Source: Patescibacteria group bacterium (GTDB lineage Bacteria > Patescibacteriota > Microgenomatia > Levybacterales > UBA12049). Taken from it: a stretch of DNA of 64,000 bases. Below the pieces are notes generated by a model. That model saw nothing but the letters and a program-made list of their open reading frames with translations. It had not been told where the DNA came from and searched no databases. The stretch lies in NCBI GenBank assembly GCA_035946335.1, contig DASYZL010000006.1, positions 106,594 through 170,593 of the forward strand, written 5' to 3'. A program made the position numbers and the translations under genes. Below are positions 12,109-54,979 of this stretch, piece after piece (position 1 is the stretch's first letter; each line of letters opens with the position of its first letter).

Positions 12109-12170
12109 AGCAGCCTTTATTATACTCTCTGTTAAACTCCCTTGTCCAGAATCTTGCCAAAAAGTAATAG

Positions 12171-12953: not shown

Positions 12954-12954
12954 A

Positions 12955-29549: not shown

Positions 29550-30232
29550 TGCTTTCTCCTTTCAATTTCTTTGAGTATTTTTTCTACTGTTTCTTCTTCA
29601 GAAAGATTTGAATCATCCAGGACAAAATATCCGTATTTTTCTGGTTCCAGCACTAACGGATCCGCTTCTCTATGCGTATCACGATAATCCCTTTCTTTGG
29701 TATCCTTAAGCATTTGTTCAAATGAAATCCCTGTATTTTGTTTTCCACCCATCTGTTCATATCGTCGTTTTGCCCGAACTTCAGGCGTTGCTGTTAAATA
29801 GATTTTGAGAAACGCGTCAGGTAAAATTCGTGTTGCTGCGTCCCGTGCTTCTGCAATGACAACAAACCCTTTTTCCATCTTTTCTTTTGCAATGCTTCGT
29901 TGCCTCTTGACCATTTCCTGTCGCACCTGGGAAATCGCAGCAACTTTTGCAACAGATTGTGTCACATCCCGTTTTTTGATCCGTTCAGTAATATCTTCTC
30001 CGTTCATATACGTTGTTGCATTATCCAGGGTAAAGGTGATTGTCTGCAATGCGACAAGCACCTTCTCTTTATCGCTCACTGGAATATTGTGTTGCAAACA
30101 ATACAGCGTCAAACCCCGATACATTGCCCCTGTGTAGAGATGAAAACCATGGAGTTTTTTTGCAATGAGTGCGGCAATTGTCCCTTTCCCTGCTGCAACC
30201 GGACCATCAATTGCTATTGCATATCCATTCAT
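29546..30232 (-). CDS. cmk: Cytidylate kinase
   Basis: 228 aa; GPVAAGKGT P-loop and the Cmk core; ATGA overlap with map. Confidence 0.8.
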   Translation of the reverse strand: MNGYAIAIDGPVAAGKGTIAALIAKKLHGFHLYTGAMYRGLTLYCLQHNIPVSDKEKVLVALQTITFTLDNATTYMNGEDITERIKKRDVTQSVAKVAAISQVRQEMVKRQRSIAKEKMEKGFVVIAEARDAATRILPDAFLKIYLTATPEVRAKRRYEQMGGKQNTGISFEQMLKDTKERDYRDTHREADPLVLEPEKYGYFVLDDSNLSEEETVEKILKEIERRKQ

Positions 30233-39664: not shown

Positions 39665-40396
39665 TTACTTTTCTCCCTCTACAGTATCTGGTTCTACTAC
39701 TTCAGATATTTCTTCTTTCGTTTTTCCCTTTTCTTCCGCTTTCTCTTCTTGTAATAAAGGAACAAACTTTTTGTTTGTCCCTCTTTTTATTACTGTCAAT
39801 AAACTCCCTATTTTACCTGGCACAAGTCCTGCAATAAAAAGCGTGTTAGCGCTGATACCGGCAACAGTCAAATGTTTTACTGTCACCTGTTCATTACCCA
39901 TTTTTCCTGCCATCCGCTTTCCTTTATACACCCGTCCTGGTGTCGTTGTTTGACCGATAGAGCCCGGAGCCCGCTCTCTATCCGATTGTCCGTGCGTTCG
40001 CGGACCGCCTCGAAAGTGATACCGTTTAACCCCTCCGGCAAATCCTTTTCCCTTGGAAGTTCCATGTACATCAATGATATCTCCTGGTTGTAACGCAGCT
40101 ACAAGCTCAATCTTCTCTCCAACAGTAGGTAAGTTTTCCCCGTCAGCAACACGAACCTCTCTTAAAAAGCGAGGAGCTTTTTCTAGTAAAGCTCCTTTTA
40201 TATGTCCTTGCAGTGGTTTATTCATTTTCTTATTGTGTCCATATCCAAGTTGCACTGCCCAATACTTGTCCTTCTCCTTCGTACGAATCGCAATAACGGG
40301 ATTCGCCTCAACTGAGACTATCGTCACAGGAAGCCGTTTTCCGTCTTGACGGAACTTTTGTGTTTGCCCCTGCTTTATTCCTAAAATTGCTTGCAT
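39665..40396 (-). CDS. rplC: 50S ribosomal protein L3
   Basis: Start trimmed to MQAILGIKQGQTQKF...; conserved L3 core. Confidence 0.9.
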   Translation of the reverse strand: MQAILGIKQGQTQKFRQDGKRLPVTIVSVEANPVIAIRTKEKDKYWAVQLGYGHNKKMNKPLQGHIKGALLEKAPRFLREVRVADGENLPTVGEKIELVAALQPGDIIDVHGTSKGKGFAGGVKRYHFRGGPRTHGQSDRERAPGSIGQTTTPGRVYKGKRMAGKMGNEQVTVKHLTVAGISANTLFIAGLVPGKIGSLLTVIKRGTNKKFVPLLQEEKAEEKGKTKEEISEVVEPDTVEGEK

Positions 40397-40551
40397 AGAA
40401 AACAACAAAAAAAGCGGCCATCAGGCCACCTTCTTTCCCGAAGATTTCCCCTGATGCTACTCTTTCACCACTCCTCCTTGGTTGAGCTGGATCATGTGTA
40501 AGCGAATTGTATCAAAACAGCAAGAAGTCTGCAAGAGGAAAGGAAAGACAG

Positions 40552-40557
40552 TATAAT
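40552..40557 (+). promoter_or_regulatory. -10 hexamer TATAAT 6 nt upstream of the MurF-like ligase ATG (leaderless-type)
   Basis: gacaGTATAATacgtgc-ATG; ATG at 40564. Confidence 0.35.
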
Positions 40558-40563
40558 ACGTGC

Positions 40564-41832
40564 ATGCTGCAACATATAAAGCATTTTCTCTACTTTCCTG
40601 TCGCTTCATATTTTCGCTTTTTTGCTTCGATACAACTACATAGATGGCATCCAACTGTTATTGTGGCAACCGGCTCGAGCGGGAAGACAACCTTATTGCA
40701 CCTTATTGAAGCACAGCTTGGACACAAAGCACGGTATTCACATCATGCAAATAGTATCTACGGCATTCCATTTGACATCCTTGGTTTATCGAGAAAATCC
40801 CTCACACGGATTGAATGGCTGTATTTGTTTTTTGCCACGCCATTTAGAGCTTTTCGAAAACCGTACAGGGAACCGTTATATGTTGTGGAAGCAGACGCTG
40901 ATAGGCCGAATGAGGCAAAATTGCTTGCATATTTTCTCAAACCGGCAGTAACACTTTGGACAGGTGTGAGCAAAACGCATACCATGAACTTCGACGCATT
41001 GGTAGAAGCAAAAAAGTTTTTGTCGGTTGAGGACGCTATCGGATACGAATTTGGATATTTTGCACAAACGACAAAGGACGTGGTAATTGCAAACGGCGAA
41101 AATATACAGGTTCTTAATGAAATCAAAAGAACGCGTGCCCAAAAAATCTTCACAACAAAACATGACCTAAAGCAATATCAACTTACGAAACGAACAACGA
41201 CATTCCGCATAAAAGAGCAAACGTTTGTTTTGCCCTTTTTGCTTCCCGAGGAAACATATATGTCTTTGGCGATGGTTAGAGAACTTTTGCTCCTTCTCAA
41301 CCTACCACTTGATCCATCTTTTCGCCTCCTGACTCTACCTCCAGGGCGCAGTTCTGTTTTTGCAGGCATCAAACAAACAACCATTATTGATTCCTCATAT
41401 AACGCAACCCCTGAAGGGACAAAAACAATACTTTCACTCTACACAAAATACCCTGCAAAAGAAAAATGGGCAGTATTAGGAGACATGATAGAACTAGGGG
41501 GTGAGGAGAAAGAAGAACATGAAAAGCTTGCAGAAGAAATCGCAAAGGGAAATTTTGATAAAATCATTCTCGTTGGTACTCGCGTTACAACCTACACATA
41601 CCCTGTTTTGCATGCTTTGCAACCTGTGTTACCAGTTGTAACATTTGAACAGCCAAAAGATGTACTTGTTTTTTTGCTGCAAGAAATAAAGGGAAATGAG
41701 ACAATACTCTTTAAAGGCGCACGGTTTTTAGAAGGAATTATTGAGCACCTGCTTATCGATAAAAGGGATTTTGCAAACTTGTGTCGTAGAGAAAAGATAT
41801 GGCACATACGAAGAAAACAATGGAGATTATAA
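40564..41832 (+). CDS. Mur ligase family protein (MurF-like UDP-MurNAc-peptide ligase)
   Basis: P-loop VIVATGSSGKTTLLHLI; C-terminal WAVLGDMIELGGEEKEEHEKLAEEI resembles the MurF signature. Start trimmed to MLQHIKHF... (the track started at 40507). Confidence 0.7.
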   Translation: MLQHIKHFLYFPVASYFRFFASIQLHRWHPTVIVATGSSGKTTLLHLIEAQLGHKARYSHHANSIYGIPFDILGLSRKSLTRIEWLYLFFATPFRAFRKPYREPLYVVEADADRPNEAKLLAYFLKPAVTLWTGVSKTHTMNFDALVEAKKFLSVEDAIGYEFGYFAQTTKDVVIANGENIQVLNEIKRTRAQKIFTTKHDLKQYQLTKRTTTFRIKEQTFVLPFLLPEETYMSLAMVRELLLLLNLPLDPSFRLLTLPPGRSSVFAGIKQTTIIDSSYNATPEGTKTILSLYTKYPAKEKWAVLGDMIELGGEEKEEHEKLAEEIAKGNFDKIILVGTRVTTYTYPVLHALQPVLPVVTFEQPKDVLVFLLQEIKGNETILFKGARFLEGIIEHLLIDKRDFANLCRREKIWHIRRKQWRL

Positions 41833-41861
41833 ACACAGTATAATATATTGATTAATCACCT

Positions 41862-42560
41862 ATGAAAAAAATATTTTTACTTCACGGTTGGACATATTCT
41901 CTGGAAAAATGGCAGAATTGTATATCGCGATTACAAAAGGCAGGATATGACATTATTGCGCTACGCGTTCCTGGACTTACGACCACAATTGACAAAGCAT
42001 GGGAACTCAATGATTATGTTTCCTGGTTGCATGCTATTCTAGCAAAAGAAAAAGGAAAACCAATCCTTATCGCACACTCCAATGGCGGACGTATTGCTAT
42101 TGCATTTGCGGCACAATATCCCCATATGGTAGAAAAGCTTATTTTAATTGACAGCGCAGGTATTTATCATAAGGAAATTCCAATTCTGATAAAACGATTT
42201 GTCTTTAGTAAGCTTGCCCGTGCAGGAAAGCTACTTACCTCTTCCAAAGAAATACAGCACATATTCTATAAACTTGTCGGAGAACATGATTATCTAAACG
42301 CCCCATCATTGTCTGTACGCCAAACTCTACGTAACCTAATTGCAATTGACTGCACACCATATCTGACCCGGCTGAGAATACCAACACTTATCATTTGGGG
42401 AGAAAAAGATACTATTACGCCACTTCGTGATGGGGAACTTATGAAAAGTTTGATACAACAGTCTAAACTTGTTATCGTGAAGAACTCACGACACGCTCCG
42501 TACCATACACATACACAAGAAGTTGTTGATGTGATTGTGAAAGAACTGCAGCATATATGA
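41862..42560 (+). CDS. Alpha/beta-fold hydrolase (esterase/lipase-like)
   Basis: 232 aa; nucleophile elbow in IAHSNGGRIA; Asp/His downstream. Confidence 0.65.
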   Translation: MKKIFLLHGWTYSLEKWQNCISRLQKAGYDIIALRVPGLTTTIDKAWELNDYVSWLHAILAKEKGKPILIAHSNGGRIAIAFAAQYPHMVEKLILIDSAGIYHKEIPILIKRFVFSKLARAGKLLTSSKEIQHIFYKLVGEHDYLNAPSLSVRQTLRNLIAIDCTPYLTRLRIPTLIIWGEKDTITPLRDGELMKSLIQQSKLVIVKNSRHAPYHTHTQEVVDVIVKELQHI

Positions 42561-43732
42561 GTATTTTTAACTCGCTCGGATCAAATTATGATTTTCGTTC
42601 TGCATTACAAACGCTTTTTCAAAGAAAAGATTTTTCTGCAAAACTCACTACACTTCTTGAGAAAGAATACAACGGGAAAGCTGTACTCGTCTACAAAGGG
42701 AGAGAAGCGATACTCCTATCACTGCAATTACTACAGATGCCAAAGGGTACACAGGTTGCAATCAATGGTTTTACCTGTTTCGCAGTATATAACGCTGTGA
42801 CAAACGCCGGTTATTCACCGGTTCTGTTGGATATTGAAAAAACATTGTTGCATTTTTCTGCTGAGATACTGGAAAAAGCAATAAAACAATTCCCGTCTCT
42901 CAAAGTAGTTATCATCCAAAATACACTCGGGATTGCATGTGACATAGAAAAAATTGCTGCGGTTTGCACAAAACATAACCTTATCCTCATAGAGGATCTA
43001 GCACATAGTGTCGGACTATACTATGCAAACAGGAAAGAAGCGGGGACAATTGGCGATTTTGTTACCCTGTCATTTAGTCAGGATAAAATGATTGACGCAG
43101 TTTCGGGAGGAGCCTTGGTTATCAGGAATAAAACATACCATACGCTTCCACATGTTCCTTTTAAGAAAGTGCCGAGTTCTCAACAGTTGAAGGACAGATG
43201 GTATCCGTTCCTAACCTATTGCATAAGAAAAAGTTATGATCTGCGCATTGGAAAACTCTTACACAGCTTCTTGAGACAGCTTTCTGTACTCTCACAACCG
43301 GTTGGTAACCCGACAGATACTATCCATGCGCTCCCTCGGTGGTACTGCAAACCTATTTATCACGGTTTTCAAAGCCTTGCCCAAAACATCAATCACCGAA
43401 AGGCGGTTGCAGGAGTATATGAGCAAATTGACAAAAAAAGTATCGGAAAGAGAGAAATAAAAAGTATTTTTTTGAGATTTCCCTTTTTTGTTGATAACCG
43501 TTCTTCACTTATTTCATATCTCAAAAAACATCATGTTTACATTGCTGACATTTGGTATGACAGTCCGATTAGTCCAAAACAATACATACAATATACAAAC
43601 TATCATGGTGAATGTCCGAATGCAGAAAACATTGCAAAAACGATCATCAACTTGCCAACACACCGGAATGTAAACGCAAGAGATGCACGTGTGATTACAG
43701 AAAGGATTACCACATGGCTACAGTCAGCATAA
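42557..43732 (+). CDS. DegT/DnrJ/EryC1/StrS-family PLP-dependent aminotransferase (sugar aminotransferase-like)
   Basis: 391 aa; active-site Lys context LSFSQDKMIDAVSGGAL; ATGA overlap with the hydrolase gene. Confidence 0.7.
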   Translation: MSIFNSLGSNYDFRSALQTLFQRKDFSAKLTTLLEKEYNGKAVLVYKGREAILLSLQLLQMPKGTQVAINGFTCFAVYNAVTNAGYSPVLLDIEKTLLHFSAEILEKAIKQFPSLKVVIIQNTLGIACDIEKIAAVCTKHNLILIEDLAHSVGLYYANRKEAGTIGDFVTLSFSQDKMIDAVSGGALVIRNKTYHTLPHVPFKKVPSSQQLKDRWYPFLTYCIRKSYDLRIGKLLHSFLRQLSVLSQPVGNPTDTIHALPRWYCKPIYHGFQSLAQNINHRKAVAGVYEQIDKKSIGKREIKSIFLRFPFFVDNRSSLISYLKKHHVYIADIWYDSPISPKQYIQYTNYHGECPNAENIAKTIINLPTHRNVNARDARVITERITTWLQSA

Positions 43733-44739
43733 AAGGAGTTACCGATAAAAATGTCTGGGAACAGTTTGTTGCTCACTATGAGGGCGCAAATTTTTTGCAA
43801 TCGTGGTACTGGGGAGATTTCCACACAGCACTGAATAAAAAGATTGCCAGGACAGGCTTTTACAAAGGTGGAACGCTAACTGGAGTCATGTTAAGTGTTG
43901 TCGAGAAAGCAAAACGCGCAACGTATCTGACTGTTCCCGCAGGACCATTGATTGATTGGAATGACAAAAAGACCATTGAGAAATTTGTTGCGGAAATAAA
44001 GCGGATTGCGGGAAGAGAAAAATGTTCTTTTGTCAGGGTACGTCCACAATTATTATTAGACGATTTCTCAAAAAACCTTTTTTCTGGACTTGGATTCCGT
44101 CCTTCACCTATACACCTTACCGCAGAATTAACATCTCAATTAACTCTTTCACCTTCAGAAGAAACTCTTCTTGCAAACATGCGAAAAGGAACACGGTATG
44201 AAATTAACAAAGCAAAGAAAATTGGCATACATATTCAGACAACAAACGAACCGTCTGCGATACAAGGATTCTACGAACTGCAATTACAAACAGCAAAGCG
44301 GCAGAACTTTGTTCCATTCTCATATGCCTTTTTACATGAACAGTTTACTATATTTGCGGAAGCGAAAAAAGCCTTATTATATAGTGCATACATGGAAAAA
44401 GATCTCTTAGCCCAGGCATTTATTATTTTTTATGGCGAAGAAGCGGCATATCATTATGGTGCAAGCACTGATTTGGGGAGAAAATATCCTGGCGTATATC
44501 TCATCCAATGGGAAGCAATAAAAGAAGCGAAAAAACGCGGGTTGAAACGATATAATTTCTGGGGTGTTGCGCCGGAAAAAGAGATAAACCACCGCTTTGC
44601 AGGAGTTTCACTATTTAAAAGGGGTTTTGGGGGCAGTGACATTGAATATTTACATGCACAGGATTTTATTATTAATGCTCCAAAGTATGCGGTAAATTAT
44701 ATTATTGAAAAATGGCGCAAGCACTACCGAAGAGTATAA
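43714..44739 (+). CDS. FemAB-family aminoacyl-tRNA-dependent peptidoglycan branch-peptide transferase
   Basis: Start trimmed to MATVSIKGV...; FemAB/FemX fold (tandem GNAT-like halves, ...LFKRGFGG... C-terminal motif). Its stop lies 2 nt from the stop of the convergent rpsJ. Confidence 0.7.
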   Translation: MATVSIKGVTDKNVWEQFVAHYEGANFLQSWYWGDFHTALNKKIARTGFYKGGTLTGVMLSVVEKAKRATYLTVPAGPLIDWNDKKTIEKFVAEIKRIAGREKCSFVRVRPQLLLDDFSKNLFSGLGFRPSPIHLTAELTSQLTLSPSEETLLANMRKGTRYEINKAKKIGIHIQTTNEPSAIQGFYELQLQTAKRQNFVPFSYAFLHEQFTIFAEAKKALLYSAYMEKDLLAQAFIIFYGEEAAYHYGASTDLGRKYPGVYLIQWEAIKEAKKRGLKRYNFWGVAPEKEINHRFAGVSLFKRGFGGSDIEYLHAQDFIINAPKYAVNYIIEKWRKHYRRV

Positions 44740-44741
44740 CC

Positions 44742-45050
44742 TCACATCTTTATTTCAATATCTACGCCGGCAGGAAGCTCTAAATGACCAAGACTATCCA
44801 TTGTTTTTTCTGTTGGAGAAACGATGTCAATAAGTCTTTTGTGGACACGGATTTCAAAATGGTCACGGGCATTTTTATAAATGAATGGAGAAGCCTGCAC
44901 TGCATAAACCGTTCGGTCGGTCGGAAGTGGTACTGGTCCGACAACTTTTGCACCAGTCCGGATTGCAGTATCCAGAATCTGCTGACAACACGCGTCAATA
45001 ACGCGTGCATCATATGCTTTGAGTCGTACTCGTATTCTTCCTTTTGGCAT
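44742..45050 (-). CDS. rpsJ: 30S ribosomal protein S10
   Basis: 102 aa; ...[38 protein letters not shown]... and ...[31 protein letters not shown] match S10 over its whole length. Confidence 0.9.
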   Translation of the reverse strand: [102 protein letters not shown]

Positions 45051-45124
45051 AGGCTTTCAAAGAACAAATTTCTTCGTGGTGTGATTATACAATAGAAAGA
45101 AATGCTTGTCCAGCAAAACTTTTC

Positions 45125-45177
45125 TTGACAGATCCTGCTTTTTCTGACTATTATCAAAGAGGGGACAAAAAGGAGGT
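45125..45177 (+). promoter_or_regulatory. Sigma70-like promoter TTGACA-18-TATTAT plus strong SD AAAAAGGAGGTGA for the Met-rich protein/msrA pair
   Basis: -35 at 45125-45130, -10 at 45149-45154, SD at 45169-45177, ATG at 45184. Confidence 0.45.
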
Positions 45178-45183
45178 GAACGT

Positions 45184-45582
45184 ATGGCACGAAAAACAGT
45201 CGCAACAATAACACGAAAAACGATGATCATTGTCACTGTTATTACACTTTTTGTTGGTGCACTTTTTGGGTATGAAATCGGAAAAGCAAAATATATTGCA
45301 AAAATGGCCTTGGTACAAGGAGGACTCATGCAGCAACTGGAAGATGTAAAATTACAAGTTCAGGCTGTCAGAATGCAAAGCGGATTTATCATGAAGGGCA
45401 ACAGTATGTATGTTATTAATGCCGGACAAATGATGCTTATGGATAAGAATATGACCCTAAAAGATGGGACAGAAGTAACAACAACAGGGCAAGTAATGAT
45501 GAAAGACGGCACGACACTATTGATGCAAAATGATCAGGCTCTTACAGCAGACGATAAACTGATAAACGTATCGATGGACTAA
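45184..45582 (+). CDS. Methionine-rich membrane-anchored protein (about 12% Met) of unknown function
   Basis: 132 aa; N-terminal TM helix, then a soluble region containing MM/MxM clusters (GQMMLMDKNM, TGQVMMKDGTTLLMQ). Confidence 0.55.
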   Translation: MARKTVATITRKTMIIVTVITLFVGALFGYEIGKAKYIAKMALVQGGLMQQLEDVKLQVQAVRMQSGFIMKGNSMYVINAGQMMLMDKNMTLKDGTEVTTTGQVMMKDGTTLLMQNDQALTADDKLINVSMD

Positions 45583-45588
45583 CTTTTT

Positions 45589-46137
45589 ATGGCGGAAGAA
45601 ATAGCAACGCTTGCAGGTGGCTGTTTTTGGTGTACTGAGGCAATCTTTAAACGGCTTAAAGGAATCATATCAGTGATCCCTGGATATGCAGGGGGAACGA
45701 AAGAGAATCCTTCTTATGATGAAGTTTCTTCAGGGAAAACAGGATATGCTGAGGCAACTCAATTACATTTTGACCCATCGATTATCCCCTATGAAAAAAT
45801 ATTAGACGTATTTTGGCACACACACAATCCAACAACGCTTAATCAGCAAGGCAATGATATTGGTACCCAGTACCGATCTGTTATTTTTTTCCATAATAAA
45901 CAGCAGAAAGAGATTGCAGAAAGATCAAAAAAAGGTATTGAAAAGTCAGGATTGTATAAAGACCAGATTGTTACCGACATACTGCCCTTTACCACATTTT
46001 ATTCCGCAGAATCATATCATAAAGACTATTACGATCGAAATCGTGATTACCCCTATTGTACTTACGTCATTGACCCGAAAATTCAAAAACTTATGGAAGA
46101 ATTCGGAAAAGATGTTAAAGATGAGTATAAGTCGTAA
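45589..46137 (+). CDS. msrA: Peptide methionine-S-sulfoxide reductase MsrA
   Basis: 182 aa; catalytic GCFWC motif and the conserved MsrA core. Confidence 0.9.
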   Translation: MAEEIATLAGGCFWCTEAIFKRLKGIISVIPGYAGGTKENPSYDEVSSGKTGYAEATQLHFDPSIIPYEKILDVFWHTHNPTTLNQQGNDIGTQYRSVIFFHNKQQKEIAERSKKGIEKSGLYKDQIVTDILPFTTFYSAESYHKDYYDRNRDYPYCTYVIDPKIQKLMEEFGKDVKDEYKS

Positions 46138-46197: not shown

Positions 46198-46680
46198 TTA
46201 TTCTATTGCTTTTACCAGAGTCAAGTCATAATCAAGAAATCCTAAAGTATGATATAGCGCAATAGCTTTTGAGTTGGCATAGTAAGCAGAAACTCCGATA
46301 CGGTTACATGTTTCTTTTCTGAATGTTGCTATCAATGCACGATACAAAGCATTTCCAACTCCTTTTCTCCTTTGTTCTTTAAGGACAAACCAATCCTCAA
46401 TAAATCCCTCTTTATCCAAAATTCTGTATGATTTTTCTTTAATATCGCCGCAAATATAACCAACGAGTTTTCCGTCAAGCTCTGCAACAAAAGTAAAATA
46501 TTGGGGATCTTCGATAAATTTTTTAGCAAACTCGGCAAGCGTTTTCTCTTTATCTTTTGATTGTATAAAAGGCATAAGAGTTTTTGGAAAAATTTCTTCT
46601 TGATCATAGTATAAAGCAAATTGTTGTATGAGAAAGAGCAATTGCTGTTTATCTTTCTTTATTGCTTTACGAATTAACAT
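46198..46680 (-). CDS. GNAT-family N-acetyltransferase
   Basis: Start trimmed to MLIRKAIKKDK... (the track started at 46746); acetyl-CoA-binding motif RRKGVGNALYRALI. Confidence 0.7.
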   Translation of the reverse strand: MLIRKAIKKDKQQLLFLIQQFALYYDQEEIFPKTLMPFIQSKDKEKTLAEFAKKFIEDPQYFTFVAELDGKLVGYICGDIKEKSYRILDKEGFIEDWFVLKEQRRKGVGNALYRALIATFRKETCNRIGVSAYYANSKAIALYHTLGFLDYDLTLVKAIE

Positions 46681-46686
46681 AAAACC

Positions 46687-46695
46687 ATTATAGCA
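46687..46695 (-). promoter_or_regulatory. Extended -10 TGCTATAAT 6 nt upstream of the GNAT ATG (leaderless-type)
   Basis: Minus strand ...tgcTATAATggtttt-ATG. Confidence 0.35.
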
Positions 46696-46702
46696 AACGC
46701 AT

Positions 46703-46724
46703 AAAAAAATCCGCATGAAGCGGA
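46703..46724 (-). terminator. Rho-independent terminator downstream of tuf
   Basis: Minus strand UCCGC-uucau-GCGGA followed by UUUUUUU, starting about 25 nt after the tuf stop. Confidence 0.5.
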
Positions 46725-46748: not shown

Positions 46749-47945
46749 TTACTTAATAATCTTTGTGATAACGCCTGCACCAACTGTTTTACCGCCTTCG
46801 CGGATAGCAAAACGGACGCCTTCTTCAAGAGCAACTGGTACAATCAGTTGGACTGTCATTTTTGTATTATCTCCCGGCATTACCATTTCTGTTCCTGTTG
46901 GAAGAGTTACGCTACCTGTTACATCGGTTGTACGAATGTAAAATTGCGGCCGGTAACCGGTGAAAAACGGTGTATGTCGTCCACCCTCTTCTTTTGCAAG
47001 AATATATACTTCTGCTTCAAATTCTGTGTGTGGCGTAATGGAACCTGGTTTAACAATAACCTGTCCACGCTCAACGTCATCTTTTTCAATGCCACGAAGG
47101 AGCAGTCCAACATTGTCTCCTGCTTGACCTTCATCGAGTTGTTTTCTAAACATTTCAACACCGGTGACAACTGATTGTACTGTGGGACGAATACCGACTA
47201 ACTCAACTGCCTCATTTACCTTAACAATTCCTCGCTCAATTCTTCCGGTAACAACTGTTCCTCGTCCTTTAATAGAAAAGACATCCTCAACTGGCATCAA
47301 GAATGGTTTGTCTGTATCACGAACCGGATCAGGGATGTAGTTATCAACTGCGTCCATAAGGTCAAGAATTTTCTGCTCTGCATCTTTATCGCCTTCGAGC
47401 GCTTTCAAAGAAGAACCACGGATTACCGGCACATCATTTCCTGGATATTGATATTTTGTTAACAGTTCACGAACTTCCATTTCTACCAAATCAAGCAGTT
47501 CCGGATCTTGCACCATGTCACATTTATTCATGTAGACAACAATTGCTGGTACACCAACTTGCCGAGCGAGAAGAATGTGTTCGCGAGTTTGCGGCATTGG
47601 ACCGTCTGGCGCTGAAACAACAAGAATTGCTCCATCCATTTGTGCTGCACCAGTAATCATGTTTTTAATGTAATCAGCGTGGCCAGGAGCATCAATATGG
47701 GCATAATGTCGTTTTGCTGTTTCGTATTCGATGTGGGTAATGTTGATCGTAACGCCTCGGGCTCTTTCTTCCGGGGCATTATCAATGTCTTCGTATTTTT
47801 TCGCTTCTGCTTTTGTTCCCTTTTCTGAAGCATATTTTGCCAAAACAGTTGCAATTGCTGCAGTGGTAGTTGTTTTTCCGTGATCAACGTGACCAATCGT
47901 TCCAATATTAACGTGGGGTTTGTTTCGTACGTATTTATCTGCCAT
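46749..47945 (-). CDS. tuf: Elongation factor Tu
   Basis: 398 aa; [14 protein letters not shown] and NKCD GTPase motifs. Confidence 0.95.
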
Positions 47946-48014: not shown

Positions 48015-48054
48015 CACCCAAAATGAAAAAAATATATGGTATGATGAGTTGTTT

Positions 48055-48918
48055 ATGCAACTCCTTACAACTTCCGGATGGAAAGATTATGAACTCATCG
48101 ATTCCGGAAATGAAATGCGTTATGAACGCTTTGGCCCATACAAGACTGTTCGACCTGACCCGCAGGCAATCTGGCAACCCTCACTCAAGGATTGGAGCGA
48201 TGCAGATGTGCAGTTTATAAGCACAGGTGCAGGCAAAGGAATATGGCAATTTAAACGGCATTTACCGGAAAAATGGCTCATGCACTGGCGTCACCTTGCC
48301 TTTTGGACACGACTGACATCTTTTAAACACACCGGGGTATTTCCTGAACAAAATATACAGTGGGAATATATTGAGAAGAAAATAAAACAGTTTCGATCCG
48401 CACCAACTATCCTCAATCTTTTTGGATACACCGGTATTGCAAGCTTAGTTGCAGCGGCGGGAGGAGCACATGTTACGCATATTGATGCATCAAAACCTTC
48501 TCTTAGCTGGGCGAAGGAAAACCAAGTAGTTGCAAAATTACAAGACAAACCAATGCGTTTCATGCTAGATGACGCTGTAAAATTTGTTGAGCGGGAAATC
48601 CGGCGGGGCAACACATATAACGGTATACTCCTTGATCCACCTGTATATGGACATGGTCCTGCGGGACAAATCTGGAAGTTTAGTGAAGATTTTCCTCGCC
48701 TGTTACGTTTGTGCAATCAGCTACTTGCTAAACAACCACTTTTTGTTATTGTCAATGCGTATGCAATTTCTTCTTCAAGTCTGATGCTGGAAAATGTCAT
48801 GCATGATACTTTACCTAAGGGAAACATTATCGTAGGAGAGTTAGCGCTGCAGGAATCATCGTCCAAACGCCTCCTTTCAACTGGTATTTTTGGCAGATGG
48901 GAAGGTTTACTTCCGTAA
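48055..48918 (+). CDS. Class I SAM-dependent methyltransferase (RlmI/RlmK-like rRNA methyltransferase C-terminal module)
   Basis: Start trimmed to MQLLTTSGW...; Rossmann motif LNLFGYTGIASLVAAAGGA and D/NPP-like motif LLDPPVYG. Extended -10 TGGTATGAT lies 9 nt upstream. Confidence 0.6.
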   Translation: MQLLTTSGWKDYELIDSGNEMRYERFGPYKTVRPDPQAIWQPSLKDWSDADVQFISTGAGKGIWQFKRHLPEKWLMHWRHLAFWTRLTSFKHTGVFPEQNIQWEYIEKKIKQFRSAPTILNLFGYTGIASLVAAAGGAHVTHIDASKPSLSWAKENQVVAKLQDKPMRFMLDDAVKFVEREIRRGNTYNGILLDPPVYGHGPAGQIWKFSEDFPRLLRLCNQLLAKQPLFVIVNAYAISSSSLMLENVMHDTLPKGNIIVGELALQESSSKRLLSTGIFGRWEGLLP

Positions 48919-49377
48919 GCAGCTTTGTATATCACTCATTAGTTGTGGCGGAATATTTGTTGCAGAGGTTATACGAGCAAGATCCTGCGGTTTGTATTGC
49001 GTTATAACCTTCTGGAGAATGCAATTACATGCAGCCGCTTGAGATCCCAGTACTGTTTTGCAGGTCAGTGCAAATTGCTGTACGAGTTGTGGAGTAAACT
49101 GCCCAATTGCCGATACCGACGCTGCTGATTGTTGCATCGATTGCTTGAGGGGGATGGGGGATGGAGAAAGCGGGAGTACAACAGTTTTTGGAATGGCATT
49201 TTGATATATTGCGATAAGAAAGAAGGCAACTGCACCAATACACAAAAGTGCAATACCTGCAGTCAAAAAAACAGCCGGCTTATTACTGTCTGTTGTGTGG
49301 ATGGAGCGTAAACTGGTAAATGTGAGAAAAAAACCAATACCAACAAAAAGCAGCATGAGTAACGCAAAAAGATTCAT
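48907..49377 (-). CDS. Hypothetical membrane protein (two TM helices plus a Cys-containing soluble domain)
   Basis: 156 aa; no recognisable family. Confidence 0.4.
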   Translation of the reverse strand: MNLFALLMLLFVGIGFFLTFTSLRSIHTTDSNKPAVFLTAGIALLCIGAVAFFLIAIYQNAIPKTVVLPLSPSPIPLKQSMQQSAASVSAIGQFTPQLVQQFALTCKTVLGSQAAACNCILQKVITQYKPQDLARITSATNIPPQLMSDIQSCLRK

Positions 49378-49417
49378 ATATTCATTATCATGCCTTTAAG
49401 CAAACCTTGTCAAGAAA

Positions 49418-50077
49418 TCACTGGACCATCACCTGCAGCATTTTATCACCAACCTGAATCTTTTTTACGACATCCATCCCCTGTATTACTTTTCCAAAAA
49501 TAGTATACGCGTGCGGAAGATTTGGGTTATCAGCAAGCATAATAAAAAATTGGCTGCTATTTGTATTCGGGCCGCGATTCGCCATTGCAACAATACCTTC
49601 AAGATACCCTCTCTGGTAACTTGACGCACTTGCATTCAATTCATCATCAAACGTTGGTCCATAAATTGATTCTCCCCCTGTCCCATTACCGTTCGGATCC
49701 CCACCCTGAATGACAAATCCCGGAACAACGCGATGGAATATTAATCCATTATAGTATCCTGCTTTTGCGAGTGTTGCAAAATTTATGACGGTTTTTGGTG
49801 CGTCATTCGGATACAGTTGGATAACAATATCACCCTTTGCTGTATGTATAGTTGCTGCATTTGCACTGATCCGTGGCAAAGTCGTTAAATCAACCGGTGT
49901 AGAGGTAGGAATTGGCGAGGTAGCACTGGTGGGAGTTGCTTGAGAAGTTGTTTGTGGTTGTGAAAGTATATTGGTGTTCTGATCAAGCGGGGAAGTTTTG
50001 GAATTATGAGCGAAAAGTGCAATTGCAGTAAAAATTCCTGCAAGAATAATCATAGAAATGATAAGCACCTTTACCAT
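49418..50077 (-). CDS. ppiB: Membrane-anchored cyclophilin-type peptidyl-prolyl cis-trans isomerase
   Basis: 219 aa; N-terminal TM, Thr/Ser/Pro-rich linker, then the cyclophilin core (FHRVVPGFVIQGGDP...). Confidence 0.85.
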   Translation of the reverse strand: MVKVLIISMIILAGIFTAIALFAHNSKTSPLDQNTNILSQPQTTSQATPTSATSPIPTSTPVDLTTLPRISANAATIHTAKGDIVIQLYPNDAPKTVINFATLAKAGYYNGLIFHRVVPGFVIQGGDPNGNGTGGESIYGPTFDDELNASASSYQRGYLEGIVAMANRGPNTNSSQFFIMLADNPNLPHAYTIFGKVIQGMDVVKKIQVGDKMLQVMVQ

Positions 50078-50155
50078 GAGGATTATTGTAGCAGAGAAAC
50101 ATGAGATTGCAACTCACACATGCATTGATAGAGACTAGAATACGGTAAGAAATTA

Positions 50156-50164
50156 TGGTATACT
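50156..50164 (+). promoter_or_regulatory. Extended -10 TGGTATACT upstream of fusA
   Basis: TGnTATACT about 34 nt upstream of the fusA ATG; leader contains AAAGGGGA. Confidence 0.35.
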
Positions 50165-50197
50165 CTGCTTATTCCCAAAGGGGAATTTTTCTTTGCT

Positions 50198-52309
50198 ATG
50201 GCAGACCAAACACTTAATCGTCATGCAGAACTGGATAAAATCCGCAATATTGGCATTATTGCACACATTGACGCGGGTAAAACCACAACAACCGAGCGCA
50301 TCCTTTATTATACCGGACGAACCTATAAAATCGGCGATATTGATGAAGGTAACACCCAAATGGACTGGATGGAACAGGAGAAAGAACGTGGAATTACTAT
50401 TGTCTCTGCGGCAACAACAACTTTTTGGAAAGACTATCGCATCAATATTATTGATACTCCCGGTCATGTTGATTTCACCGCAGAGGTAGAACGGTCACTT
50501 CGCGTCCTTGACGGTGGCATCACAGTCCTTGACGCAGAAGAGGGAGTACAATCTCAATCAGAGACAGTCTGGCGACAAGCAGACAAGTATAAAGTGCCGA
50601 GAATCTGTTTTGTGAATAAAATGGATAAACTAGGTGCGGATTTTTTTGCGACGGTTAAATCAATTGAGGACCGTCTCGGCGCAAACCCTGCAATCATGGT
50701 AATTCCCATCGGCTCTGAAAATACATACATTGGGAATGTTGATTTACTAACGAGAAAATCCTTTATATGGGGTTCCGATGAGCTTGGCGCGAAGTTTGAT
50801 GTGAAAAATGAAATTCCGCAAGATTTACAGAAAAAGGTTGAAGAATATCGACAAAAACTGGTTGAAAAAATTGCAGAAACGAACGATATATTGTTGGAGA
50901 AGTATTTGGCAGGTGATGAAATTTCTGTGGATGAGTTAAAAAAAGCTCTTCGTGCAGCAGTGATTGCGTATAAACTCGTCCCTATTTATGCCGGTACATC
51001 TTTGAGGAATAAAGGCGTGCAACCCCTTCTTGACGCTGTCGTTGATTATCTTCCTTCACCAGTTGATTTGGGCGAAGTAAGAGGGGAAAATCCAAAAACA
51101 AACGCAGAAGAAATCAGAAAGTTAACCCCTGAGGAAACAATGTGTGGCCTTGCATTTAAGATTCAGATTGATCCGCATGTTGGAAAACTCACCTACTTTC
51201 GCGTATATTCAGGGAAAATGCAAGCAGGATCATATGTATACAACAGCACGAAGCATGTCACTGAACGCATTGGGCGACTGTTACTAATGCATGCGAATAA
51301 CCGTGAGGAAATTAAAGAAGCGTATGCGGGGGAAATTGTTGCACTTGTTGGATTAAAAGATACCATTACCGGGGATACGCTATGTGATGAGGAATCGCCA
51401 ATTGTCCTTGAAAAAATTACCTTCCCTGAACCGGTTATTTCTCTTGCAATTGAACCACAAACAAAAGCAGACCAGGAAAAACTCGGCCTTGCGCTCAAAC
51501 GACTTACCGAAGAAGATCCAACTTTTACCGTAAAAACAAACCACGAAACAAATCAAACTATTATTTCCGGTATCGGCGAATTACAGCTTGAAGTCATGGT
51601 TGACCGGATGAAACGGGAGTTCGGTGTTGTTGCCAATGTCGGTGCACCACAAGTCGCATACAAGGAAACAATCAAGCAATCAGCGCAGGGAGAAGGGAAA
51701 TATATTCGCCAGTCAGGAGGACGGGGGCAATACGGCCATTGTTGGCTACGCTTGGAACCCAAGCCTCGTGGTGAAGGTAATGAATTTGTTAACTCGATCA
51801 AAGGCGGTGTTATTCCTGCAGAATTTATTACCTCTGTGCAAAAAGGAGTCAAAGAAACTGAAGAGAATGGTGTCCTGTTAGGTTACCCTGTCGTTGATGC
51901 GAAAGTATCTTTGTACGATGGGTCATACCATGAAGTTGACTCATCAGACGTTGCATTTAAAATTGCAGCAAGTATGGCATTCCAGGCAGCGGCAAAAAAA
52001 GCAGACCTTACGCTTCTTGAACCGGTAATGAAAGTAGAAGTCACAACGCCGAGTGAATATATGGGAGACATCATTGGTGACTTATCCAGTAAACGTGCGC
52101 AAATTCTTGGTACAGAAGAGCGCGCTCGCGCAACAATTATCAATGCGATGGTACCGCTCGCAGAACTGTCAGGATATGCAACGCAACTTCGCAGCATGTC
52201 ACAAGGAAGAGCAAGTTATTACATGGAACCTTCTCATTACGAGGAAGTACCGAGAAATATCATTGAACAGCTGCTTGCAAAATCTACGTTTACCGGACGG
52301 GTGGAGTAA
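50198..52309 (+). CDS. fusA: Elongation factor G
   Basis: 703 aa; [14 protein letters not shown] and NKMD GTPase motifs and EF-G domains II-V. Confidence 0.95.
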
Positions 52310-52324
52310 ATTCTCTGCATAACC

Positions 52325-52903
52325 ATGAATGTTCAGAAATTCAAAGAGGATATTGTTTTCCAGGAAAATTTAAGAGGATACAACTTCATTTTTCATAGTA
52401 CGTGGGGACTTTTCAGCTATAATGCTATTGATGCGGGAACGCAGCTTCTTATTGATTCCATGCATATTAACCCATCTGATGTTGTGCTGGATTTGGGCTG
52501 CGGATATGGCGCAATCGGTATCGTTGCCGCAAAACTTGCACCACAAGGTCATATTCATATGGTTGATAAAGACTTTGTTGCTGTAGCATATGCAGAAAAA
52601 AACGCGGAAGCAAATAAACTGAAAAATTGCGAAGCGTATTTAAGTAATGGCTTCAGTCATATCGATCCGAAGCGAACGTTTCATGTTATCCTTTCCAATC
52701 TCCCCTCACACATGAGTAAGGAAGTCTTAAGTATTTTTCTCTCTGACGCGAAAGATCATTTAAAAACCGGGGGAATGATTTCCCTTGTCATTGCATCCCG
52801 TCTAAAACATTTCATACAAATTTCACTGCAGGATATCTTTGGCAATTGTGAAATAGTAGCACAGAACAAAACATACATTATGTGCACCGCGATAAAACAA
52901 TAA
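52325..52903 (+). CDS. Class I SAM-dependent methyltransferase, RsmC/RlmG-like (methyltransferase small domain)
   Basis: 192 aa; VLDLGCGYGAIG SAM motif and NLPSH (NPPF-like) motif. Confidence 0.65.
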   Translation: MNVQKFKEDIVFQENLRGYNFIFHSTWGLFSYNAIDAGTQLLIDSMHINPSDVVLDLGCGYGAIGIVAAKLAPQGHIHMVDKDFVAVAYAEKNAEANKLKNCEAYLSNGFSHIDPKRTFHVILSNLPSHMSKEVLSIFLSDAKDHLKTGGMISLVIASRLKHFIQISLQDIFGNCEIVAQNKTYIMCTAIKQ

Positions 52904-53569
52904 TTACTGTAAGGTAACGTGGATTCGTGATTGCAATAGATTTGCCGGTGATCCGAGCTGTGTTTTCATCTGCACCTGATACAAATCGTTCCCGCTTCCC
53001 AGTTGGACCGGTTGCGAAATAAGATACTGCGGACTTGCTCCACCGGAAAAGTACATGTCAGAATACCATACTTCATGTCCTGCGGTAACATCATACAGGC
53101 GTACCCATGCTGTTTCATTTGCCGTTGGAACCTGAATCGAAGCTTCAAAAATAACCTGCTTCAGGTGAGTATAGTTTGCCGGATTAATATACGTTTGTAG
53201 CCCCGCAACATCTGTCCAGTCAGTCGCAGTACTTTGCCCTGAACCAAAAGGAATATAATAATCTTTTGCTAAAATTACTTGCGCTACAACCGGAGTAACG
53301 GCAGAAACCGCCGGCTGTGGTGTACTCGTAGGAACAAATACAACTGTTGGCGTTGGTGTTAGTATCGATGGAGTTGATTGCACAACGTTTTGCATTTGCT
53401 CTAAAAACGGCGCGTTTGGATTTTTCCGAATGAGTTGTTGCGCAAGTAAAACATCTACAAGGATAATATTTATTCCGATTGCAAATTCAATAACACTGAA
53501 AAGCTTTTTCCACCACGGAACAGAGTAATACATAAGGTAAGCGTAACGGAAAAGGGGGAAAAGAGTCAA
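52904..53569 (-). CDS. Hypothetical membrane-anchored surface protein (TM anchor, Pro/Thr-rich linker, C-terminal beta-rich domain)
   Basis: 221 aa; likely start at the internal MYYSVPWWKK...; linker TPTPTVVFVPTSTPQPAVSAVTP. Confidence 0.4.
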   Translation of the reverse strand: MTLFPLFRYAYLMYYSVPWWKKLFSVIEFAIGINIILVDVLLAQQLIRKNPNAPFLEQMQNVVQSTPSILTPTPTVVFVPTSTPQPAVSAVTPVVAQVILAKDYYIPFGSGQSTATDWTDVAGLQTYINPANYTHLKQVIFEASIQVPTANETAWVRLYDVTAGHEVWYSDMYFSGGASPQYLISQPVQLGSGNDLYQVQMKTQLGSPANLLQSRIHVTLQ

Positions 53570-53607
53570 GAAATGCGTTTTCTATATTCCTACTTCTGTC
53601 GCTATTT

Positions 53608-54054
53608 TTACTCCTTTAGGATTCTGTTTACCGGTAAGACTTGTTTTTGCGCTTTAACAAAACAATAAGCATCAAAATAAGATCCGGCATTTTCTCCGAT
53701 AGCATAAATTATTTTTTTCTCCATAAGAGTAGAATCTATGATTTCACCTGTTGGAGAAATTGTTTGCAGTGTCGGCCCAGATGCTAACCACACTCCCCGT
53801 CGATCAGTATCTTGAGGAAATAATACTCGTGCAGTATCTGCAGATAATCTTCTTCCTAAATTCTTTTTAAGACAAGCGTTAAAAGTATCATATACGTTTG
53901 GGTAAAGTTCGCTCTCGCATCTTCGTATTGGGTTCTTAGTATCTTCAGGAGTAACTTGTTCTTGAATTTGTATCGGAGCGTCCGAAGAGACTTCAAAATA
54001 TTCGGAAACATCATTTGACGTAACAAGTAGTACTAAAAAACCTTCTTGGCTCAT
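53608..54054 (-). CDS. Hypothetical protein
   Basis: 148 aa; no TM helix and no recognisable motif. Confidence 0.35.
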   Translation of the reverse strand: MSQEGFLVLLVTSNDVSEYFEVSSDAPIQIQEQVTPEDTKNPIRRCESELYPNVYDTFNACLKKNLGRRLSADTARVLFPQDTDRRGVWLASGPTLQTISPTGEIIDSTLMEKKIIYAIGENAGSYFDAYCFVKAQKQVLPVNRILKE

Positions 54055-54072
54055 GACTAGTGTACCGTAGCT

Positions 54073-54546
54073 TTACCACCTGAAGTGTGCGAATGCTTTA
54101 TTTGCTTCTGCTTGTCTATGCGTATTGTCTCGCTTTTTGGATGCTTCTCCTTTTCCTTCCAGTGCATCTAAAAATTCTGCAGCCAGCTTTCCACTCATCG
54201 CATGATATTCTTTATTTGACCGATTTTTTGCTGCCTCCAAAACCCAGCGGATAGCGAGTGCTGTTTTACGGTCTCCTTTTACTTCAACCGGCACTTGATA
54301 GTTAGCTCCCCCTACCCGTCGCGCTTTAATTTCTACTTTTGGACCAATTGCATCTAACGCCTTCTGAAATGTATCCACTGGATCCATTCCTTTTTTTTCA
54401 AAAGCATCAAGCATGTCATAGACAATTTTTTCTGCAGCCTTTTTTTTACCGTCTATCATCACACAATTGATAAATTTGGCAATCAACGTACTGCCATATA
54501 TTCCGTCTGGCCTGATTAATCGCTTTACTGCTTTCTTGTGTCTCAT
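54073..54546 (-). CDS. rpsG: 30S ribosomal protein S7
   Basis: 157 aa S7 core. Confidence 0.9.
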   Translation of the reverse strand: MRHKKAVKRLIRPDGIYGSTLIAKFINCVMIDGKKKAAEKIVYDMLDAFEKKGMDPVDTFQKALDAIGPKVEIKARRVGGANYQVPVEVKGDRKTALAIRWVLEAAKNRSNKEYHAMSGKLAAEFLDALEGKGEASKKRDNTHRQAEANKAFAHFRW

Positions 54547-54547
54547 A

Positions 54548-54979
54548 TTACTTTACTGCTACTTTTCCTCCTTGCGGCTTTTTTGCGCCATATTTACTCC
54601 GTGATCGCTTCCGTCCTTCTACACCCTGCAAATCAAACTTACCCCGGACAATATGGTACTTTACACCAGCCAAATCTTTTACGCGACCGCCTCTGACAAG
54701 CACAATACCATGTTCTGCCAACGTATGTCCAACACCCTGGATATATGCCGTTACTTCCGCTCTGTTGGATAACTTTACCCTGGCGACTTTTCTCAAGGCT
54801 GAATTTGGCTTCCTTGGCGTCATTGTTTTCACTAAAGTCACAACCCCACGTTTTTGCGGAGACATATCATTTGTGTACACTCTGTCTTTTGCATTATATG
54901 ACTTTCGTAAACCAGTCACGCGGGTTTTTTTAATTTTTTTCTTTCTTCCATTTTTAACAAGTTGTGATAGTGTCGGCAT
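54548..54979 (-). CDS. rpsL: 30S ribosomal protein S12
   Basis: 143 aa; ...[13 protein letters not shown]... and ...GVKYHIVRG... S12 signature. Confidence 0.9.

Follow-up and report, generated by a model that had tools for sequence, protein, structure and literature searches.

In a 64,000-nucleotide (nt) stretch of a Levybacterales genome (Patescibacteria; assembly GCA_035946335.1, contig DASYZL010000006.1; hereafter the window), the S10 ribosomal-protein operon is split: a cassette of four plus-strand genes lies between rpsJ and rplC, which are both on the minus strand. The four genes encode a Mur-type ligase (here MurL), an alpha/beta hydrolase, a DegT-family pyridoxal phosphate (PLP) enzyme and a FemX-type transferase (here Fem). 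The best overall explanation, to which we give a probability of about 0.6, is that an operon native to this bacterial group was relocated into a permissive junction and that it forms a module of peptidoglycan-precursor synthesis. Gene identities were taken from a list of open reading frames (ORFs) together with Pfam and NCBIfam profile searches of the window proteins. These analyses confirmed the six genes and their strands, which had been proposed in a sequence-only reading of the same DNA, and the domain assignments given there for the Mur ligase, the alpha/beta hydrolase, the DegT and the FemAB protein held in the profile searches.

The insertion places 4.3 kb and four opposite-strand genes between rpsJ and rplC. 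The Fem stop codon (44737-44739) is separated by 2 nt from the convergent rpsJ stop codon (44742-44744), as had been stated. At the other end, the distance from the MurL ATG to the rplC ATG is 167 nt. The spacing of about 170 nt in the sequence-only reading agrees with the ATG at 40564, but not with the start at 40507 used there; the ATG is the more likely of the two, as an independent gene call on a Logan contig chose it over TTG 40507 and the resulting length fits that of more than 100 homologues (419-424 aa). Compared with the classical S10 operon (rpsJ-rplC-rplD-rplW-rplB-...), the order from rplC onward is intact and rpsJ is detached, no longer being followed directly by rplC on the same strand in one transcription unit. 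Gene calls and Pfam matches on the Logan contig give the retained order as rplC-rplD-rplW-rplB-rpsS-rplV-rpsC-rplP-rpmC-rpsQ.

To place this arrangement among relatives, species-representative genomes were scanned with L3, yielding 80 loci in which S10, L3, L4, EF-Tu and the cassette proteins were located by tblastn. Both rpsJ and rplC are present in 29 Patescibacteria loci, labelled Levyibacteriota, Microgenomates, Gottesmanbacteria or Patescibacteria (several are mislabelled 'Gammaproteobacteria'), with identities to the window of up to 63% for L3 and up to about 90% for S10 and EF-Tu. In all 29 loci tuf-rpsJ-rplC-rplD run on one strand, and in none did tblastn find cassette genes between rpsJ and rplC. 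The sequence-only reading had regarded the cassette as an insertion rather than a lineage trait, and the linkage of rpsJ and rplC without the cassette in every relative bears this out. A metagenome scan with MurL further recovered an unrelated 4.6-kb metagenome contig (L089) carrying rplD(-), rplC(-)|MurL(+) and hydrolase(+). The L089 L3 is 72% identical to that of the window, the leader region is nearly the same, and the two MurL proteins are sisters in a neighbour-joining tree of the ligases. Because L089 shares the rplC|MurL junction, the relocation is clade-specific and not an artefact. The arrangement is thus a relocation of a native operon in a small clade and not a lineage-wide trait.

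An assembly chimera or a very recent acquisition by a mobile element is extremely improbable. The window does derive from a metagenome-assembled genome, and a single genome supplies the Fem|rpsJ junction. Against this, the gene order is identical on a separately assembled 26-kb Logan contig (run SRR12347820), L089 has the same rplC|MurL junction and leader, and the MurL phylogeny tracks the host lineage. The reading frames are intact, and GC content is uniform across the window (0.37-0.45) with no compositional break. No repeats were detected in the cassette flanks, and a Pfam scan of the window revealed no integrase, transposase or recombinase; the hallmarks of a mobile genomic island (integrase or transposase, flanking repeats, atypical composition) are accordingly missing from the window.

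The junction itself appears loose throughout the lineage. The rpsJ-rplC gap measures 137-309 nt in 15 of the 29 relatives and 0.68-2.1 kb in the other 14 (L007, L008, L012, L015, L020, L026, L027, L029, L030, L031, L034, L035, L038 and L059), and it is never shorter than 137 nt; in most Chloroflexi loci of the same scan it is 12-35 nt. The genes occupying the long gaps are mutually unrelated and include a NUDIX hydrolase with an unknown gene, a histidine phosphatase (His_Phos_1, two loci), a peptide deformylase, an FtsJ-type methyltransferase, an acyltransferase, one opposite-strand gene and several unknowns. The rpsJ|rplC junction therefore looks like an insertion hotspot or operon boundary that tolerates stray genes in this lineage, probably because rplC has kept, lineage-wide, a promoter-like -10 box of its own together with a terminator-like hairpin and a leader of some 100 nt. 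The sequence-only reading had held that rplC and the genes after it cannot be co-transcribed with rpsJ in the usual way. The two genes indeed cannot share a transcript here, but the usual way probably never applied in the lineage, since rplC has its own -10 box, leader and hairpin and 14 of the 29 relatives carry unrelated genes at this position. The S10 operon is genuinely split, but the disruption is mild; taken alone it is a minor curiosity, and it has a plausible explanation.

Comparison of the rplC leaders hints at a separate transcription start for rplC. As the window has no gene in the same direction just ahead of rplC, transcription of rplC should start in the 167-nt spacer or inside MurL antisense, which would place the terminator-like hairpin (Table 1), ending about 10 nt 5' of the rplC ATG, in the rplC 5' leader. 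In the window and 28 of 30 relatives, a GC-rich hairpin followed by a run of 5-9 T stands 8-97 nt 5' of rplC; a further relative shows a slightly weaker form. It stays next to rplC whatever lies upstream, and its stems differ between genomes yet remain complementary, with at least eight stem sequences (for example GGTGGCC/GGCCGC, GGTAGCC/GGCTACC, GCGACTG/CAGTCGC, GGTGCC/GGCACC and GGCCTC/GAGGTC). A GC-rich stem with a U-run between promoter and first gene, maintained by compensatory changes, is the pattern of an attenuator. Most of 29 aligned leaders also have a TAYAAT box, often with an upstream TG, about 95-110 nt 5' of the hairpin end (T11 invariant, A12 in at least 90%), and the element TTGCAG-17-TGGTACAAT of the candidate rplC promoter is present in L089 as well. 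An ATG 7-20 nt 3' of the TAYAAT box opens an ORF of 4-12 codons with GGAGGT. A mini-ORF of the same 12-codon length as in the window occurs in L089, L007, L008, L012 and L034; its length is kept in the closest relatives, its substitution pattern is not clearly coding-like, and more distant relatives retain the GGAGGT motif and not the reading frame. The same leader element was seen in L007-L035, L038, L059 and L089, corresponding to 40397-40534 (-) in the window.

RNAalifold on the six closest leaders returned the terminator hairpin as the sole consensus structure. The single-sequence fold of the rplC leader was no better than shuffled sequences (z = -1.4), and we claim no larger leader structure. 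A search of the whole window against Rfam at gathering thresholds identified tRNA-Pro only, and a search of the rplC leader with E values up to 10 gave chance-level matches only. We regard the rplC leader as attenuator-type and as a candidate new ribosomal-protein leader in Microgenomates. In E. coli, the S10 operon has an L4-controlled attenuator in the leader 5' of rpsJ. The layout is alike, with a hairpin a few tens of nucleotides 5' of the first ribosomal-protein gene, except that the hairpin of the window precedes rplC and not rpsJ; the window leader has neither sequence nor Rfam similarity to any known leader. The E. coli-type S10 leader is reported to have a narrow distribution (PMC3616713), and the sole published candidate leader before rplC that we found is an archaeal L4 leader in Archaeoglobi (PMC7247131).

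On the evidence of these elements, rpsJ would form a transcription unit of one gene, with a promoter of its own at 45084-45112, rplC and the following genes would be driven from about 40506-40534 through the hairpin, probably acting as an attenuator, and the cassette would be transcribed divergently from rplC and run head-on into rpsJ. No terminator-like element for the cassette transcript was recognisable where Fem and rpsJ converge. On the rpsJ strand, a weak hairpin (-7.1 kcal/mol) with a TTTTT run behind it, which involves the last Fem codons and spans the Fem ORF end (44712-44752), may serve as an rpsJ terminator embedded in the Fem antisense coding sequence. The TATAAT box ahead of MurL (Table 1) makes a leaderless-type MurL start possible. 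The motif AAA(G/C)ACAGTATAATA occurs before both the MurL ATG (40544-40558) and the hydrolase ATG (41831-41845; repeat D6), which hints at an internal promoter within the 29 nt that part MurL from the hydrolase gene; elsewhere, in other genomes, these genes abut or overlap. The promoter-like sites of rpsJ and of the DUF6799-msrA pair stand back to back (45084-45154).

The cassette itself is native to this bacterial group and occupies other chromosomal sites in other members. MurL has 2,072 homologues at E <= 1e-5; the best 120 of these share 52-60% identity with it and range from 412 to 463 aa (most 415-430), and all those that carry a name belong to the Candidate Phyla Radiation (CPR). The order ligase-hydrolase-DegT-Fem is invariant across 12 gene-called contexts and the metagenome loci. 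All four genes are found in 26 loci, the window included, and 11 further loci end at a contig edge after gene 2 or 3; several cassette loci are near-duplicates from different samples. The 19-nt overlap of the DegT-type and Fem genes seen in the window recurs exactly in seven of seven gene-called loci. Neighbourhoods vary, with gyrA, dnaB, cysS, gyrB together with an M15/VanY-like peptidase gene, or murI-murD-murC next to the cassette. In L002, L105, L115 and L116 the cassette lies inside or beside mur operons; the operon at locus L115, on a 1.15-Mb contig, reads ftsI-murE (397 aa)-nucleotidyltransferase-murC fusion-murB-murA-[MurL-hydrolase-DegT-Fem]-murF (399 aa)-mraY-murI-murD. Each cassette protein falls in a known superfamily, and none reaches the NCBIfam cut-off of any characterised equivalog. 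We found no description of this gene combination in the literature searched, the coverage of which was incomplete and so gives no proof of novelty.

Several side observations were made at these loci. In L127 (8964-9965) and L128 (7771-8772) a Peptidase_M15/VanY-like gene lies 36 nt 5' of MurL on the same strand; it shows a weak similarity to D-Ala-D-Ala dipeptidase (46 bits). The gyrA gene adjoining the cassette in L127 (14798-18640) carries an intein with a LAGLIDADG endonuclease domain. In L089 (2467-2482), the rplC frame aligned to the window ATG opens with CTG, and the neighbouring ATG opens a different frame that ends in a stop; the CTG is either a rare start codon or a sequencing error.

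MurL is a member of the Mur ligase superfamily, having the P-loop/central ATPase and C-terminal domains without the N-terminal domain. PF02875 scores 50.2 bits in the window protein (cut-off 28.4); PF08245 scores 19.1 (cut-off 24) and exceeds its cut-off in orthologues. The P-loop TGSSGKTT is nearly invariant and the MurF-type C-terminal motifs are conserved among 34 orthologues. MurL reaches 124.1 bits on TIGR01143 (MurF), well below the cut-off of 288.6, and lacks the three-domain organisation of MurF: MurL aligns with S. pneumoniae MurF from residue 78 of the latter and with T. maritima MurF from residue 74, and no more than about 30 residues of MurL precede its P-loop. As a separate observation, the canonical MurE (397-401 aa) and MurF (399-400 aa) of Microgenomates are also without the N-terminal UDP-binding domain (L115:2478-3671 and 12165-13364; L129-L132), with hidden Markov model (HMM) alignments beginning at model positions 88 and 63, respectively, and the MurC of the Microgenomates mur operon is fused to an N-terminal nucleotidyltransferase domain.

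Could MurL simply be the housekeeping MurF of the lineage, making the cassette an ordinary murF operon plus a FemX that branches the pentapeptide? MurF is its best family match and JGI names members of the family MurF. MurL also adjoins Ddl in nine loci, and Bacillus subtilis likewise has a ddl-murF operon. The substrate of Weissella FemX is reported to be the MurF product (PMC2175331). The finding of Ddl beside MurL favoured this assignment, which was dropped when L115 proved to encode both a MurL (125 bits on TIGR01143) and a better MurF (269 bits, beside mraY) in one operon and the 399-400 aa MurF type, which NCBI names MurF, proved widespread in Microgenomates. An earlier tblastn search for further MurF-like genes in the fetched loci (about 1.2 Mb) had revealed none outside the cassette; a later search gave the L115 murF. 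MurL also sits on a long branch separate from MurF in the neighbour-joining tree, and NCBI names it 'cyanophycin synthetase' or 'glutamate ligase domain-containing protein' rather than MurF (the window protein is HEV2339581.1, 'cyanophycin synthetase [Patescibacteria group bacterium]', on a 239,830-nt contig). We consider the housekeeping role distinctly unlikely. MurL is, as far as its sequence tells, a paralogue of MurF and not MurF itself; the sequence-only description of a MurF-like ligase was right about the closest family, but the protein coexists with a better MurF in L115.

The three partner enzymes show intact catalytic features. In the hydrolase, the HSNGG nucleophile motif, the Asp and the His are conserved in 25 orthologues, so that both the fold HMM and the Ser-Asp-His triad of alpha/beta-fold hydrolases are present. 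The PLP lysine of the DegT-type enzyme, in SFSQDK, falls opposite the equivalent perosamine synthetase residue in the alignment, and 23 orthologues retain it; EDLAH is conserved as well; the family HMM and the PLP-binding lysine place the protein in DegT/DnrJ/EryC1, and its equivalog scores all fall far below their cut-offs. Pfam found no dehydratase or oxidoreductase in the cassette, and the amino-sugar role that had been suggested for this enzyme found no support. Fem fits the FemAB family by HMM, double-GNAT length and catalytic Lys. Its FK pair aligns with F304-K305 of the FemX of Weissella viridescens, FemX(Wv), and is conserved in 19 orthologues; a catalytic role has been assigned to Lys305 (PMC12945691). 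Fem is collinear with Weissella FemX over 18-332 of 337 model positions of the equivalog NF047883 (UDP-MurNAc-pentapeptide-lysine alanyltransferase), on which it scores 50.6 bits against a cut-off of 500.

Synteny connects the cassette with ddl and alr. Between murA and murF, the Microgenomates mur/dcw operon has a slot whose content varies: ddl-alr in L131, metK-ddl-alr in L129, metK-ddl in L132, metK-DUF218 in L130 and the whole cassette in L115. Likewise, dnaB-MurL-[hydrolase-DegT-Fem]-Maf/HAD (L003, L087 and L088) alternates with dnaB-MurL-[Ddl]-Maf (nine loci), in some of which a class I/II aminotransferase precedes Ddl. The Ddl beside MurL scores as an ordinary D-Ala-D-Ala ligase (448.6 bits; cut-off 262) and stays clearly under every Van cut-off. 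Ddl-linked MurL proteins form a single clade nested among the other MurLs in the neighbour-joining tree; Ddl-linked and trio-linked MurLs have 109 conserved columns in common, and a single column consistently sets them apart. MurL should therefore catalyse the same reaction whichever neighbour it has. A specialised, van-like MurF for an altered terminus was also considered, and it was weakened by the single group-specific column and the ordinary Ddl. The alternation with ddl(-alr) points to a tie between the cassette and the D-Ala-D-Ala step.

From these data we propose, tentatively and at slightly less than even odds, that the cassette serves cytoplasmic peptidoglycan-precursor synthesis as an accessory module, working at the D-Ala-D-Ala/MurF step or directly after it. 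In this scheme MurL would consume ATP to join an amino acid or dipeptide to the carboxylate of a muramyl peptide, the FemX-type enzyme would move an aminoacyl residue from its tRNA onto an amino group, either of the precursor or of a free amino-acid acceptor, and the PLP enzyme and hydrolase would make or trim an amino-acid building block. Two readings fit within this outline and are hard to separate: a branch or modification module, in which the MurF product would be followed by FemX action as in Weissella and which has a parallel in the murF and vanK/staO genes paired in glycopeptide clusters (PMC4790382, PMC4229326), or a Ddl/Alr-independent supply of the terminal dipeptide. The sequence-only reading had favoured a module for stem-peptide or interpeptide modification. 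Linkage to mur operons (L002, L105, L115 and L116) supports a tie to peptidoglycan, and synteny speaks for the D-Ala-D-Ala step no less than for modification of interpeptide bridges.

In full, the second reading holds that the hydrolase-DegT-Fem trio and MurL constitute a route to the stem-peptide terminal dipeptide, or an analogue, free of Ddl and Alr in many CPR bacteria. The PLP enzyme would make the acceptor, Fem would couple the aminoacyl-tRNA residue to it, and MurL or MurF would install the product. This route explains the synteny best, as there are two independent syntenic alternations with ddl(-alr), and among the loci compared none holds both Ddl and the trio. The active-site columns of MurL are equal in both settings, which would be expected if the partners deliver the same kind of substrate; the L115 operon has nearly every precursor gene except ddl and alr; and the Fem-like DhpH-C aminoacylates a free amino-acid analogue to give a dipeptide (PMC12945691). 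Set against these points, tRNA donors carry L-amino acids or glycine, and DD-transpeptidases need a D-centre at position 4, so that an extra epimerisation has to be assumed. The route also leaves the hydrolase without a role, and the L130 slot is empty of both ddl and the cassette, meaning that ddl can lie elsewhere. We rate it as unlikely.

A cassette unrelated to peptidoglycan, serving a secondary wall polymer, a cyanophycin-like polyamide or a small peptide natural product, would make the proximity to mur genes incidental. Each enzyme is indeed far below the cut-offs of characterised peptidoglycan equivalogs, Fem-family and Mur-type ligase domains occur in natural-product and polymer pathways, cyanophycin synthetase is among the matches, and the neighbours in several genomes are housekeeping genes (dnaB, gyrA, cysS). 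Yet the cassette is repeatedly embedded in mur operons of distant genomes, alternates with ddl/alr and is a conserved single-copy operon in otherwise very small genomes, and we consider a function outside peptidoglycan very unlikely.

Some observations weigh against the explanation of a relocated peptidoglycan-precursor operon or parts of it. The Fem|rpsJ junction is known only from assemblies of this one genome. The promoters, attenuator and mini-ORF are consensus matches or comparative predictions, and the promoter scan as a whole was not enriched over shuffled sequences (20 sites where 20.3 were expected). Nucleotide-keto-sugars are the normal substrates of the DegT family, and the cassette is without an enzyme making such a sugar. 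Fem enzymes transfer L-amino acids or glycine, which fits a side branch better than a substitute for D-Ala-D-Ala. The alternation with ddl may reflect pathway clustering rather than substitution.

Comparison with known systems places the cassette close to several of them. Some glycopeptide clusters (vanX-murF-vanK-vanW-vanI of Desulfitobacterium, murX-staO of Streptomyces toyocaensis and murF2-vanHAX of Actinoplanes) resemble it in having a second MurF-type ligase and a Fem, and they encode these together with genes for the stem-peptide terminus (PMC4229326, PMC4790382). The VanY/M15-like peptidase gene beside the cassette in L127 is a further likeness. The cassette differs in being without a D-Ala-D-Lac/D-Ala-D-Ser ligase, VanH, VanX and VanRS and in being a conserved, core-like operon rather than an inducible resistance island; in the window as a whole, none of the van-cluster genes looked for (D-Ala-D-Lac/D-Ala-D-Ser ligase, VanH/VanT, VanX) was found. 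The FemX of Weissella viridescens, a UDP-MurNAc-pentapeptide:L-Ala transferase, is similar in size to the cassette Fem (335 and 341 aa) and collinear over its full length, without a coiled-coil insert in the latter; the catalytic Phe-Lys pair is kept, but the equivalog score is low, as given above. The ddl-alr-murF segment of the Microgenomates mur/dcw operon, whose slot the cassette fills in L115, resembles it in that each has one PLP enzyme and one enzyme forming peptide bonds. The segment has alanine racemase and an ATP-grasp ligase, whereas the cassette has the DegT-type enzyme and Fem with a Mur-type ligase, and the hydrolase is extra. MurT/GatD (lipid II isoglutamine synthase) likewise contains a Mur-type ligase without the UDP-binding N-terminal domain, and a partner enzyme is reported to supply the incoming group (PMC6113224, PMC3266927). 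The C-terminal domain of MurL is of the MurF and not the MurT type, there is no glutaminase partner, and the likeness is not distinctive, given that the canonical MurE and MurF of these bacteria also have no N-terminal domain.

Table 1. Features at and around the rpsJ-rplC junction (window positions; transcription signals are candidates predicted from sequence).
Feature	Position	Strand	Basis
rplC (ribosomal protein L3), first gene of the rplC-rplD-rplW-rplB-... block	39665-40396	-	TIGR03625 L3_bact, 215 bits (cut-off 142.9); independent gene call, 243 aa
Terminator-like hairpin GGTGGCC-TGAT-GGCCGC + T7 run, candidate leader attenuator	40407-40436	-	Best terminator-like site in scan, 13 pairs
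Candidate 12-codon leader mini-ORF MIQLNQGGVVKE*, with GGAGG motif	40457-40495	-	Sequence; same-length mini-ORFs in relatives
Candidate rplC promoter TTGCAG-17-TGATACAAT	40506-40534	-	Consensus match; TG-n-TACAAT, -10 at 40506-40511, TG at 40513-40514
TATAAT box 6 nt before MurL ATG	40552-40557	+	Sequence
MurL, Mur-type ligase, 422 aa	40564-41832	+	Mur_ligase_C, 50.2 bits; best family MurF, 124 bits
Alpha/beta hydrolase, 232 aa	41862-42560	+	PF00561 Abhydrolase_1, 83.2 bits (cut-off 25.8)
DegT/DnrJ/EryC1-family PLP enzyme	42557-43732	+	PF01041, 135 bits (cut-off 19.8)
FemX-type (FemAB family) transferase, 341 aa	43714-44739	+	PF02388, 144.9 bits (cut-off 24)
rpsJ (S10), isolated, convergent with Fem gene	44742-45050	-	NF001861, 139.8 bits (cut-off 85)
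Candidate rpsJ promoter TGGACA-17-TATAAT	45084-45112	-	Consensus match, 11/12 positions, best in scan
Promoter-like TTGACA-18-TATTAT for DUF6799-msrA	within 45084-45154	+	Consensus match
DUF6799 gene and msrA, second opposite-strand insertion, 5' of rpsJ	45184-45582, 45589-46137 (whole insertion 45125-46137)	+	
GNAT acetyltransferase, tuf	46198-46716, 46749-47945	-	Pair directly preceding rpsJ in relatives

The break between rpsJ and rplC is one among several interruptions of the usual str-S10-spc-alpha arrangement in this genome (Table 1). The window is a single long region of ribosomal and RNA-polymerase genes and reads rpoB-rpoC-rpsL-rpsG; fusA (opposite strand); tuf-GNAT; DUF6799 and msrA (opposite strand); rpsJ; the cassette (opposite strand); rplC through rplO; secY-adk-cmk-map; and rpsM-rpsK-rpsD-rpoA-rplQ. 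The DUF6799-msrA insertion between tuf and rpsJ was found in none of the related loci, and the GNAT gene follows tuf also in the relative L007 (tuf-GNAT-rpsJ). The str operon is broken up as well (48049-54979): fusA (50198-52309) is opposite in strand to rpsL-rpsG, and genes for a methyltransferase and a peptidyl-prolyl isomerase, together with unknown genes, part it from rpsG and from tuf. Farther along, cmk (29546-30232) lies between adk and map, and a phosphoesterase-family gene (26455-28464), an unknown gene and an Acyl_transf_3 gene (24706-25956) lie between map (28785-29549) and rpsM (23109-23528).

The link between rpsJ and rplC is among the most conserved gene adjacencies in bacteria; it is broken here, and the comparison suggests why this is tolerated. 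In a group where genetic experiments are almost lacking, the rplC leader offers a candidate for a new ribosomal-protein leader. Of greater weight than the split is the inserted operon, which would represent a conserved, undescribed four-enzyme module for cell-wall precursors that is widespread in CPR bacteria. If the cassette changes or replaces the D-Ala-D-Ala step, it would bear on wall chemistry and on sensitivity to D-cycloserine, glycopeptides and beta-lactams, and it would affect the scoring of 'complete peptidoglycan pathways' in genome surveys, as MurL is already given the label MurF by some pipelines. Should the Ddl-free route prove true, the cassette would be an unrecognised branch of a near-universal pathway and antibiotic target.

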